In this document: positions 4,939 through 7,471 of the stretch, piece by piece | Numbering within the stretch: the first letter of the stretch is position 1 | How the letters are laid out: each line of letters opens with the position of its first letter | DNA from: a virus | Lineage: Duplodnaviria > Heunggongvirae > Uroviricota > Caudoviricetes | Direction: 5' to 3' (one strand) | IMG/VR virus record: IMGVR_UViG_2541047163_000016 | Length of the DNA stretch: 40,314 bases | Made by a program: the position numbers and the translations under genes | Notes under the pieces: model-generated | Told to the model about the DNA's origin: nothing | The model's input: the letters and a program-made list of their open reading frames with translations, nothing else | Databases searched by the model: none

Positions 4939-5499
4939 TTATTTTTCCGAAACGCTCGCAGGATAATAACGATAAAGGGTTGAAAGGCCGATATCAAAAA
5001 TAAGTGCCACCTGTCTTCGACTGACACCCCCGGCCAGTAAACGCCCGACCTGCTCGTATTGTTCCTGCGTGAGACGACGGGGTCTGCCGCCGGTTCGTCC
5101 CCTTTCACGGGCAGCTGCAAGACCAGCCCGTGTCCGTTCGACAATTAATTCACGCTCCATTTCTGCCAGCGCACCCATTATGTGAAAAAAGAAGCGCCCC
5201 ATGGGGGTTGACGTATCAATGTTGTCAGTAAGACTACGAAAATTTATCCCCTGTTGCTGTAATTCATCTGTCAGCGCAACAAGGTGGCGCATACTGCGCC
5301 CCAGCCTGTCCAGTTTCCAGACCATCAGTGTGTCACCGGGTTTTAGTTTCTTCAGTGCCCGCTTCAGTCCCGGCCGCTGTGTCGTTTTACCACTCATTTT
5401 ATCTTCAAAAATCTGCTCACATCCTGCACATTCCAGCGCATTTCTTTGTAAACCTGTGTTCTGGTCATTTGTTGATACGCGTATATAGCCAATCAGCAT
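4939..5499 (-). CDS. gin: Gin/Hin/Pin/Cin-family serine DNA invertase
   Basis: MLIGYIRVSTNDQNT...VWKLDRLGRS...FFHIMGALAEMERELI... closely matches the recalled Mu Gin sequence; lies next to a gix-like site and the tail-fibre module. Confidence 0.92.
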   Translation of the reverse strand: MLIGYIRVSTNDQNTGLQRNALECAGCEQIFEDKMSGKTTQRPGLKRALKKLKPGDTLMVWKLDRLGRSMRHLVALTDELQQQGINFRSLTDNIDTSTPMGRFFFHIMGALAEMERELIVERTRAGLAAARERGRTGGRPRRLTQEQYEQVGRLLAGGVSRRQVALIFDIGLSTLYRYYPASVSEK

Positions 5500-5553
5500 G
5501 TATTTACCTTCCTTAAAAAGAGGTGGAAAGGCCTTTTAAAGCAGATATACGGC

Positions 5554-5579
5554 ATCCCTGAAACCTCGGTTTACGGGAT
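5554..5579. other. gix-like recombination site (gin-proximal)
   Basis: ATCCCTGAAACC-TC-GGTTTACGGGAT: 12+2+12 bp pseudo-palindrome resembling the Mu gix site TTATCCAAAACC-TC-GGTTTACAGGAA; lies in frame at the 5' edge of the silent tail-fibre cassette. Confidence 0.6.
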
Positions 5580-5924
5580 ACTGTAAACAGGGCCGCGAAT
5601 GCCCTGCCATCGAACGGAGCGGCTGTTGCAGCGAATAAACTCGCCACTCCAAGAAATATTAATGGTGTCCCATTTGACGGAACGCAGGATATAAATATTA
5701 CATCGGGGATGACGCAGTCTGTGGCTGACTCACGTTATGTTCAAAGCATTCGAAGAGGTTCAAGGTCAACGATTGGAATGCAATATAATATTTTTGAGGT
5801 TCCTGACGGATGCGTACTTACAGGGCTTGATGTCGCTGGTGATGGTAATGCAACGGTAACCGCATATTATCGACCTGTTCAGTTTCTGATAGATGGTTCG
5901 TGGAAAACAGCTTCCAGCGCATAA
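5562..5924 (+). other. Promoterless alternative tail-fibre C-terminal cassette (S'v-like)
   Basis: In-frame from the stop at 5559-5561: GLRDTVNRAANALPS...ATPRNINGVPFDGTQDINITSGMTQSVADSRYVQ... parallels residues 178-240 of the expressed tail fibre and then diverges; ends ...YYRPVQFLIDGSWKTASSA. Confidence 0.6.
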
Positions 5925-6003
5925 AAGTGCAGTAGTTCAAAAAACAGATTATCTGAATAAATATATGATGATTTTGTCTTTTCAACAAAAACAAGGTGAA
6001 ATA

Positions 6004-6525
6004 ATGGAGCTTATTAACGTAAAACGATATTACCCGGAACACAAACCCTATGGTGAGGATGTTCAGTATTTCCAGAGTGAGGACGGAAGGGATTTTTATG
6101 AATCTATCCCGCTTTTCACAAAGAAATACAAACTCTGTATTTCGCCTGTAACGGGTATTATCTGCTCTGTTGCTGAAGATGTCTCTGCTTTATATCCGGC
6201 AGGTTTTACTGTTGTTGAAGTGGACGAACTGCCGGAAGGTGTGAATATTGACGGTAACTGGCAGTTTTCTGATGGCCTGATATCAAAGGTGCCGGTAAAC
6301 TGGAAGACGGTTGCTGAAAAGCGCCGCTCATCGCTGCTCCAGGAAGCCAACGAAACTGTGGATGACTGGAAAACGGAATTAAAACTGGACATGATTAGCG
6401 ATGAAAATAAATTACAGCTGACGCGCTGGATGGCGTATATCCGACAGCTTAAAGAAATGCACTTTAATGATATTGCCAGTGAGGGGCATTACCAGGCGAT
6501 TCCCTGGCCGGAAAAACCGGAATAA
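6004..6525 (+). CDS. Tail fibre assembly protein (U'-like), belonging to the silent cassette
   Basis: 173-aa product from the ATG at 6004 (AAGGTGA upstream); size, position after a fibre C-terminus and ...HYQAIPWPEKPE ending fit tail-fibre assembly (Tfa/U) proteins. Alternative start at 5965. Confidence 0.65.
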   Translation: MELINVKRYYPEHKPYGEDVQYFQSEDGRDFYESIPLFTKKYKLCISPVTGIICSVAEDVSALYPAGFTVVEVDELPEGVNIDGNWQFSDGLISKVPVNWKTVAEKRRSSLLQEANETVDDWKTELKLDMISDENKLQLTRWMAYIRQLKEMHFNDIASEGHYQAIPWPEKPE

Positions 6526-6530
6526 TTCAG

Positions 6531-6555
6531 AGGGTGCATTCAGCACCCTTTTCTG
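6531..6555. terminator. Bidirectional hairpin terminator between convergent tail fibre and U' genes
   Basis: AGGGTGC-attca-GCACCCT followed by TTTCTG on plus and preceded by an A-rich tract; sits between stop 6523-6525 (+) and stop 6560-6562 (-). Confidence 0.6.
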
Positions 6556-6559
6556 TGGT

Positions 6560-7471
6560 TTACACTGAACTTACCGTTCTCCAGGCATTATTAATATAAA
6601 TCTGAACCGGGCGATAATAGACCCCACCGATATTGTCCGCAGACCGGGAGCCGGTTTCCTGCACGTTAATTCCGGAAAGCATACAACCGGAAGGTGCGCT
6701 GTAATTCCATGACATTTCATTGCCTCCGGGTGAATGATAGCTCTGTGCTCCAAGCTGAACATTCTGTACATACCGGCCATCTGCGGTTGACTGCGTCATT
6801 CCTGACGTGATGTTGATATCCAGCGTTCCGTCAAAAGGAACACCATTAATATTTCTTGGGGTGGCGAGTCTGTTTGCTGCCACGGCGGTTCCACCCGATG
6901 GCAGGGCATCAGCAGCCTTATTTACCGTTTCCCGTAAACCAACGTTATCGATAAAAGCGCCTTTATCCGGAATGTCTGCGCCGTTCTGCTCCCTGCGCAG
7001 GTAACGGTTATCACCTTCGCTTTTGCTGTAAACATCCAGATTATTACGGGCGGTTCCCGCATTCTCCAGGTCGGCAAGGTTCTGATCCTTCGCCAGAGCA
7101 TTAACGTCACCGGGACCAAGACTGTTTTTTGTGGCAAGCGCCCCAAGACCAAGATAACCACGGGCAAGACGCTGGGCTTCCGCACCGGCATCAGCAATTT
7201 CTTTCAGGTTGTTTTTCCGGGAAAAGGCATTCGCAGCGATAATGGCTTTAATGGACAGCGTAAGCTGGTTTAACTGCGCCTTATCCGGCTGAATACTGGC
7301 TTCAGCCAGAATATTCAGCAGTTCGGCCTGGAGAATATTCAGCCAGTCCTGACCAATCCAGCTGATACCTTTTTGTCCGTCACCTTCGGTAAACCAGGTG
7401 GTGGTATTACTCTGCGCCGGTGCCAGCGCAGGCATATTCGCCACGCCGGAATTATTATCAACATGAAACAT
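6560..7471 (-). CDS. Tail fibre protein (S-like), currently expressed variant
   Basis: ATG at 7471 overlaps the upstream stop (TAATG) and is preceded by GAGGAG; C-terminal ~127 aa parallels the silent cassette; ends ...GGVYYRPVQIYINNAWRTVSSV. The ORF-track start at 7525 lies inside the upstream gene. Confidence 0.75.
   Translation of the reverse strand: MFHVDNNSGVANMPALAPAQSNTTTWFTEGDGQKGISWIGQDWLNILQAELLNILAEASIQPDKAQLNQLTLSIKAIIAANAFSRKNNLKEIADAGAEAQRLARGYLGLGALATKNSLGPGDVNALAKDQNLADLENAGTARNNLDVYSKSEGDNRYLRREQNGADIPDKGAFIDNVGLRETVNKAADALPSGGTAVAANRLATPRNINGVPFDGTLDINITSGMTQSTADGRYVQNVQLGAQSYHSPGGNEMSWNYSAPSGCMLSGINVQETGSRSADNIGGVYYRPVQIYINNAWRTVSSV
6929..6954. other. gix-like recombination site inside the tail fibre gene
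   Basis: Read on the minus strand: TTATCGATAACG-TT-GGTTTACGGGAA (10/12 and 11/12 matches to the Mu gix half-sites); encodes FIDNVGLRE at tail-fibre residues 173-181, exactly where homology with the silent cassette begins. Confidence 0.5.

Follow-up and report, generated by a model that had tools for sequence, protein, structure and literature searches.

Can a tail-fibre switch still turn when its two crossover sites carry different core dinucleotides, and could one assembly gene serve two alternative fibre tips? Both questions are raised by a 1.4-kb segment of a tailed virus (Caudoviricetes), IMG/VR virus record IMGVR_UViG_2541047163_000016, of which the whole stretch analyzed, 40,314 nucleotides in length, is referred to herein as the window. 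The segment adjoins a gene for a Gin-type serine DNA invertase and contains two alternative tips of a tail fibre, together with a single tail-fibre assembly gene, tfa. We read this module as a host-range switch of the Mu-like prophages of the Sp18 family, which works in the family and is impaired in the window copy, and whose single tfa is shared by both tips; our own rough probability for this reading is 0.7.

Crossover sites and orientations of the segment

The expressed fibre, a protein of 303 amino acids, is encoded on the minus strand (7471-6560) and, as judged from its translation, is composed of a constant part, Sc (the N-terminal ~177 amino acids; 6943-7471), and a variable tip, Sv (the C-terminal 126 amino acids; 6560-6940). 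On the plus strand of the same segment lie a silent alternative tip cassette of 118 amino acids, Sv', which translates without a start codon of its own (5568-5924), and tfa (173 amino acids; 6004-6525), the sole copy in the segment. Two crossover sites of 26 bp each, inverted relative to one another, bracket this arrangement. The site on the invertase side, ATCCCTGAAACC TC GGTTTACGGGAT, occupies positions 5554-5579 with its core at 5566-5567, and the site on the fibre side, which reads TTATCGATAACG TT GGTTTACGGGAA on the minus strand, occupies positions 6929-6954 with its core at 6941-6942. Both are imperfect dyads of 12-bp half-sites around a 2-bp core, as is typical of the Gin, Hin, Cin and Pin systems, and the invertase-side site is a near-perfect dyad (10 of 12 positions). 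The half-sites resemble a published consensus (PMC4134206, Table 3).

Although the core dinucleotides of such sites are identical in those systems, they differ in this copy, TC on the invertase side and TT on the fibre side. The only exact stretch common to both sites is an 11-mer, GGTTTACGGGA, which has exactly two copies in the window, both at the sites. Thus the sequence of the two sites bears out two claims made in an earlier, sequence-only reading of this DNA, namely that the cores differ and that little else is shared. A degenerate core pattern matched the window five times (both sites among them) against 0.63 expected; two further candidates, a third crossover site and a nested segment of larger size, were rejected because neither was found in the window. 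The crossover sites form the outer ends of a 182-nucleotide inverted repeat of 78% identity (left arm 5562-5743, right arm 6765-6946), the arms of which correspond to the N-terminal regions, homologous to each other, of Sv' and Sv.

The module in the window is that of the Mu-like prophage Sp18 of Escherichia coli O157:H7 Sakai, and 2.7 kb of the window are found at 100% identity in at least 27 complete genomes of Shiga-toxin E. coli (STEC) of serotypes O157:H7, O121 and others. The window sequence and an inverted construct, made in silico by a flip at the cores, were searched against 5,426 complete E. coli genomes. Colinearity with the window orientation was found in 182 genomes and with the inverted construct in 23, seven of the latter at 99% identity or more. 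A larger protein collection contained the exact Sc-Sv protein on at least 1000 contigs and the exact 295-amino-acid Sc-Sv' fusion on 153. When the alternative tip is joined at the core, the fibre stays in frame, and the exact 295-amino-acid fusion is present in real inverted genomes, just as the sequence-only reading had predicted that inversion would join the alternative cassette in frame. Two alternative C-termini are therefore joined in frame to one N-terminus by inversion, as in the G segment of Mu, the C segment of P1 and the P segment of e14.

The junctions of the inverted copies are informative. Over 4.7 kb, PA20 in the window orientation differs from 2-6-2 and 07_3636, both inverted, by nothing but the flip, and the sequence to the right of the invertase-side site in inverted genomes is swapped exactly at that site. 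In six of the ten inverted loci examined, the cassettes can be distinguished at the base right after GGTTTACGGGA, and that base moves with the segment; the exchange must therefore have occurred within 13 bp that include the core, which fits the action of an invertase rather than homologous recombination along the 182-nucleotide repeat. Both orientations, with junctions at the cores, are thus found for the family (182 versus 23 genomes), but not for the allele pair of the window itself. On this comparison of genomes, the family switch is evidently active on evolutionary timescales.

The enzyme presumed to act at these sites is encoded beside the segment on the minus strand (4939-5499) and, like its counterparts in the Gin, Hin, Cin and Pin systems, belongs to the invertase subfamily of small serine recombinases. 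The protein of 186 amino acids contains the Pfam domains Resolvase (E 1.4e-51) and HTH_7 and an RVSTNDQ motif with Ser9, and its best matches in the PDB are the Gin structures 3UJ3 and 4M6F (E 2e-91). With 76% identity to Gin of SfMu in addition, the earlier assignment of a Gin-type tail-fibre inversion module is upheld. An identical invertase, WP_000904930.1, is annotated in most of the related E. coli loci examined, in both orientations. In Mu, P1 and Hin, a Fis-dependent recombinational enhancer lies within the 5' end of the invertase gene, and that of Mu presumably falls within the first 120 nucleotides. The first 120 nucleotides of the window gene are ~80% identical to gin of SfMu, and one match to the Fis consensus (positions 71-85) is common to both genes; a correctly spaced second site was not identified.

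Some draft assemblies end at the switch. Of 53 related draft contigs, about ten (L018, L022, L027, L028, L034, L038, L040, L043, L044 and L048) stop at the fibre-side crossover site or no more than ~150 bp from it, near locus positions 5507-5680, and many truncated fibre proteins are on record. Such ends fit mixed orientations in the cultures that were sequenced and fit equally well the presence of several Mu-like copies per genome; several of the genomes concerned do carry two Mu-like copies. These contig ends were not used as evidence.

Core dinucleotides across the family

Serine invertases must re-pair the 2-nucleotide overhangs to ligate, and the window copy, with its TC/TT cores (pairs are given as invertase side/fibre side), is for that reason probably held in the Sv orientation, by analogy with the biochemistry of Hin, Gin and Cin. 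In the case of Hin, a change of 1 bp in the core of one hix site keeps the ends from being ligated in the recombinant orientation (PMC4817059). The core alleles of other genomes were scored with probes of 55 nucleotides having the variable base at position 28; with a seed of 28 nucleotides, every seed spans the variable base, so that copies with the probed base are selected. The one exception was an allele designated TTC, which matched both invertase-side probes via a one-base gap.

On the fibre side, TT was found in 87 genomes in the window orientation and in two inverted genomes, and TC gave 80 exact matches in the window orientation. On the invertase side, TC gave 89 exact matches, and TT was found in 24 genomes in the window orientation and in two inverted ones. 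The only two inverted genomes with a fibre-side TT are the same two that have TT on the invertase side. All four combinations exist in the window orientation: TC/TT in the window and in F1273, TT/TT in Sakai, TC/TC in PA20 and TT/TC in 13E0780. Among the ten inverted loci, every pair is matched (eight TC/TC and two TT/TT), and the sequenced examples of the mismatched pairs, TC/TT and TT/TC, are seen only in the window orientation.

These alleles are distributed over nearly constant surroundings. Eight loci that share one 4.7-kb haplotype have hardly any differences outside 5566/5567 and 6941, TT is found at both sites in surroundings that are otherwise the same, and the inverted loci differ from the in-silico construct, within the module, solely at the cores. 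Position 6941 is an A in the window and a G in copies with a matched TC core. The change from G to A is synonymous (GTC to GTT, both Val). The mismatch of 13E0780 lies on a mosaic haplotype and looks like a product of homologous recombination.

The TTC allele, a one-base insertion on the invertase side (ACC TTC GG), is present in ~36 complete genomes that span serotypes O157:H7, O103, O26, O145 and O111. It co-occurs with either TT or TC on the fibre side, as in FRIK944 (TTC/TT; L009) and FRIK2455 (TTC/TC; L010), and always in the window orientation. The insertion alters the spacing of the half-sites and should, on sequence grounds, disable the site. We speculate that it arose through single-base pairing of a TT overhang with the overhang of a TC site followed by fill-in; an assembly artefact would also be possible.

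A series of steps can be proposed for these alleles. A Gin-type invertase would exchange DNA at the 2-bp cores of the two inverted 26-bp sites, and each exchange would flip the 1.4-kb segment and fuse Sc to either Sv or Sv'. The change from G to A at 6941 would have given the fibre side a TT core while the invertase-side core was TC. In the resulting copy, cleavage would mostly be followed by a 360-degree rotation and resealing in the parental Sv orientation. A rare mismatch-tolerant inversion would leave a heteroduplex at both junctions (T·G at one and C·A at the other), and its resolution by replication or repair would give one daughter with TC at both sites and another with TT at both. Such TC/TC or TT/TT progeny would have regained the matched, freely switching state.

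With Cin of P1, recombination between sites with unlike core dinucleotides, as studied by Iida and Hiestand-Nauer, is said to be rare and to leave converted cores. To our knowledge, core conversion is otherwise known only from plasmid experiments of the 1980s. The natural allele pattern, in which matched pairs occur in both orientations and mismatched pairs in one orientation only, appears to fit localized conversion of this kind. Localized conversion at Cin crossover sites (Iida and Hiestand-Nauer 1986/1987, as cited in PMC4134206 and PMC8649754) is attributed in these two papers to mismatch repair or replication.

The sequence-only reading had called the module possibly locked. For the window copy, the TC/TT mismatch and the biochemistry of Hin support that suspicion; near-identical prophages in both orientations, breakpoints at the sites and many copies with matched cores speak against it for the module at large. 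The window allele is probably a transitional, strongly impaired state and not a dead switch.

One assembly gene, two tips and the rival readings

The two tips are only 36% identical. Sv is homologous to the tip of Mu S (5YVQ_A 435-504) and to the tips of P2-like H proteins and of SfMu gp52, and Sv' is likewise homologous to the tip of Mu S (5YVQ_A 436-504). Both end at the very C-terminus of the Mu S tip. Sv also ends exactly where a solved short-tail-fibre tip ends, with only ~70 amino acids following the region that is shared. The Sv tip (window 6560-6770) is nearer to this solved protein, a 'Short tail fiber' of 554 amino acids (PDB 9CUY/9MJN, E 1e-16), than to Mu S. Sc is 48% identical to the N-terminus of the SfMu fibre gp49 and is conserved in 53 related viral loci. 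A Pfam scan of both fibres returned no domain, and hence no Peptidase_S74. Because no Pfam domain is present in the fibres and both tips end where Mu S ends, an intramolecular chaperone in the expressed C-terminus, which had been suggested from the sequence, is unlikely, and this candidate was rejected.

The product of tfa contains the Pfam domain Caudo_TAP (E 1.9e-18), belongs to phrog_136 and is homologous to Mu U (5YVQ_B). The gene lies downstream of Sv' and is convergent with Sv, no tfa follows the expressed tip, and the segment has only one Caudo_TAP gene, so that the asymmetry claimed earlier is confirmed and the mirror-image arrangement S-U/U'-S' is absent. The two convergent genes are separated by 34 bp between their stop codons, all of it hairpin, and a remnant of a deleted second tfa was considered and rejected on that account. 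The hairpin (6531-6549) has folding energies of -17.9 and -18.4 kcal/mol, with z of approximately -2.7 and -2.9. A terminator scan detected it on the plus strand only, where a good T-run follows tfa; the tail on the minus strand is weak. Of the bidirectional terminator proposed from sequence, the half that serves tfa stands, while the half in the fibre direction has a weak tail.

Relatives of the window provide a clue to what a convergent tfa might do. Each variant module among the 53 related viral loci has a single tfa that points the same way as one cassette and converges on the other, a layout found with at least four types of tip and three variants of Tfa/invertase. Seven loci (L019, L020, L021, L030, L031, L033 and L042) have neither an invertase nor a second cassette and consist of the fibre gene, then a convergent tfa and then a gene for a DUF6645 protein (for example, L030 5001-6773). 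Here tfa can never follow the fibre gene, yet it is intact; its ratio of nonsynonymous to synonymous substitution rates (dN/dS) is 0.10-0.23 in the five of the seven loci that were compared, and it has a conserved upstream region of 420 bp with a 10/12 promoter match. Sv-type tips among these fixed relatives are 81-90% identical to Sv. Between L030 and L042, Tfa is 94% identical and the upstream region is identical, but the tips are only 46% identical. All seven loci retain the fibre-side crossover sequence, in the form TTATCGATAACG TC GGTTTACGGGA, inside the fibre gene.

Judged from these loci, the single assembly gene is a conserved design of the family and not the result of a recent loss, and the likeliest arrangement would be that one promiscuous Tfa, with expression separate from that of the fibre operon, acts on both tips. 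The asymmetry itself is real, since in SfMu and P2-like phages each Sv-type tip precedes a tfa of its own. The sequence-only reading was thus right that no assembly gene follows Sv; its conclusion that the expressed variant has none is better replaced by one shared, convergent tfa, kept even in relatives without an invertase. Such a tfa, if expressed in the Sv orientation, would come near to what the sequence-only reading itself had named as a refutation, an assembly gene for the expressed orientation.

Three other explanations have to be weighed against this reading. Inverted copies might have come from RecA-dependent homologous recombination between the arms of the 182-nucleotide repeat, which flanks the segment on the inside, and would then tell nothing about the crossover sites. 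Chimeric cassettes in L014 (5517-5885) and in L068 and L070 (~2315), in which an Sv' tip carries an Sv-like N-terminal part (ETVNKAANALPS...), do point that way, and exchange or gene conversion between the repeat arms therefore appears to occur beside the action of the invertase; the inverted repeat is longer and more identical in these three copies. Homologous recombination would scatter the junctions, however, whereas those of all six distinguishable inverted loci fall at the extreme outer end of the repeat, where the longest exact identity is only 11 bp, and this route gives no reason to expect coupled core alleles (TC/TC or TT/TT). On the positions of the junctions a homologous-recombination origin of the inversions was rejected, and we regard it as highly improbable. 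A module that is permanently locked and decaying, in which the core mismatch and the missing second tfa reflect the loss of a formerly symmetric, Mu-G-like segment, is somewhat less remote although still improbable. It agrees with the unlike cores, for which biochemistry predicts no ligation in the recombinant orientation (PMC4817059), with the uniform orientation of the at least 27 identical genomes, and with the ~36 related genomes whose TTC insertion should truly disable the site. Against decay, invertase, tfa and the two tips are undamaged and do not differ between genomes; a single haplotype includes matched alleles as well as both orientations; the one-tfa layout persists in three or more diverged cassette sets and, under purifying selection, in the fixed relatives; and no trace of a second tfa remains between the stop codons.

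The third explanation concerns only the expressed orientation, namely that Sv can do without Tfa or relies on that of another prophage, that tfa serves Sv' alone, and that the two orientations consequently differ in chaperone or adaptor capping. Lambdoid prophages, numerous in STEC hosts, commonly have tfa genes and might supply a substitute, and in the Sv orientation tfa has no predicted promoter and is co-oriented with Sv' only. Also in its favour, Mu Tfa remains on the fibre tip and contributes to receptor recognition (PMC9608196). Nonetheless, the fixed relatives keep an intact, constrained tfa convergent to tips closely similar to Sv, and in SfMu and P2-like phages a tfa lies behind each of the homologous tips, all of which makes this explanation doubtful, although less so than decay.

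A shared Tfa and a working family switch with an impaired window copy thus remain our preferred reading, against which several points nevertheless weigh. An assembly gives only the orientation that predominates in a culture. The mismatched genomes are for the most part clonal, 24 of them being cattle strains of one numbered series (113-143), so that independent mismatched lineages are few; and with ~89% of copies in the window orientation in any case, the lack of mismatched copies among the inverted ones carries little statistical weight. That the window copy would be held in place draws on the biochemistry of other invertases and on the population pattern. The TT/TT pair could have arisen by a selected second point mutation instead of by conversion; by either route the two cores co-evolve, and switching would therefore appear to be under selection. 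As to tfa, its expression in the Sv orientation is a prediction from the fixed relatives. In the window, a sigma-70 promoter scan upstream of tfa gave no hit at threshold, a TATGAT at 5964-5969 has a poor -35 element and is not a convincing promoter, and the 79-bp spacer before tfa in the window is unrelated to the promoter-bearing upstream region of the fixed relatives. In addition, the Tfa proteins that accompany Sv-type tips in SfMu and P2-like phages are only 28-33% identical to that of the window.

A broader proposal is tentative, and we would give it somewhat less than even odds. The core dinucleotides may be a mutational hot spot driven by the recombinase itself and at the same time a heritable dial of locking and unlocking: a point change in one core would freeze the host-range state, the second core would receive the change through a rare mismatch-tolerant inversion (in the order TC/TC, TC/TT, TT/TT), and the aberrant TTC would freeze the switch for good. 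To this would be added a minimal 1.4-kb switch with one promiscuous, independently transcribed Tfa for two tips.

Known systems, neighbouring genes and significance

The closest known system is the G segment of Mu with its invertase Gin, as also found in SfMu and D108. As there, the baseplate genes are followed by a constant fibre part, an invertible segment and an invertase, the 26-bp sites with 2-bp cores lie inside the fibre reading frame, the tips resemble Mu S and Tfa resembles Mu U. Unlike Mu G, which is ~3 kb in size and has both U and U' (two assembly genes are also present in SfMu), the segment of the window is 1.4 kb with one tfa, its variable tips are only ~120 amino acids long, a single hairpin with a good T-run on the plus strand only serves both sides, and the cores of this copy are not identical. 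The C segment of P1 with Cin is likewise a switch of tail-fibre tips by a serine invertase; there unlike cores were studied in a laboratory cross, whereas here they are a natural polymorphism over hundreds of genomes, in a one-tfa layout.

Tail-fibre switches of the prophages of EC958 have been seen by long reads (PMC4134206). Those of Phi1, Phi2 and Phi4 are also mediated by an invertase at 26-bp sites with TC or TT cores and GGTTTA(C/G)G(A/G)GAA half-sites, but they are 2-3 kb in size and built as mirror images, each allele having its own minor fibre or assembly gene, and within a module both sites have the same core (PMC4134206). Sp18 of Sakai carries the same module as the window and is exact to the 55-nucleotide junction probes at both sites except for the invertase-side core, its cores being TT/TT and those of the window TC/TT. 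No description of the orientation or the core alleles of the Sp18 segment was found in the literature searched, nor was the single-tfa layout of Sp18 described in the papers found. What we report is a minimal one-tfa switch in an already noted prophage, with a natural series of core alleles undescribed in the literature found, and nothing categorically new.

On the minus strand, the genes are ordered as baseplate genes (gp47-like, 8022-9107; YmfQ-like, 7471-8031), the fibre gene, the segment, the invertase gene and a gene for a protein of 679 amino acids (4839-2800). The latter protein has a SASA/SGNH carbohydrate-esterase domain at residues 116-312 and DUF6645 at its C-terminus. It takes the place of com/mom in Mu and adjoins tfa in the relatives without an invertase; from its domains it could be a second receptor-modifying or tail-associated enzyme. 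The annotation of this region in RefSeq is inconsistent. A 'hypothetical protein' of 61 amino acids is drawn over the crossover site (window 5513-5698, minus strand), and the silent cassette is labelled as a 'tail fiber protein' of 67 amino acids. In two related loci, L067 and L069, the intact 295-amino-acid Sc-Sv' fusion is missing from the annotation, and L071 has the same gap.

Prophages of the Sp18 type are present in ~200 of 5,426 complete E. coli genomes and are widespread in STEC, and Sp18 is reported to be packaged (PMC2669165); for these reasons, the host range of the family would affect gene flow among pathogens. The data offer a natural, population-scale view of how the identity of crossover cores may be kept by co-conversion and how single-base changes of a core may fix the state of a fibre. 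They also suggest sequence markers for the switching ability of the prophage of a given strain, TC/TC or TT/TT as opposed to TC/TT or TTC. The one-Tfa, two-tip layout, together with fixed relatives in which one type of Tfa would serve dissimilar tips, may give leads for the engineering of fibres without matching chaperones. Thus, the series of locking, conversion and unlocking and the shared, convergent Tfa may prove useful in predicting which STEC prophages can still switch their host range.

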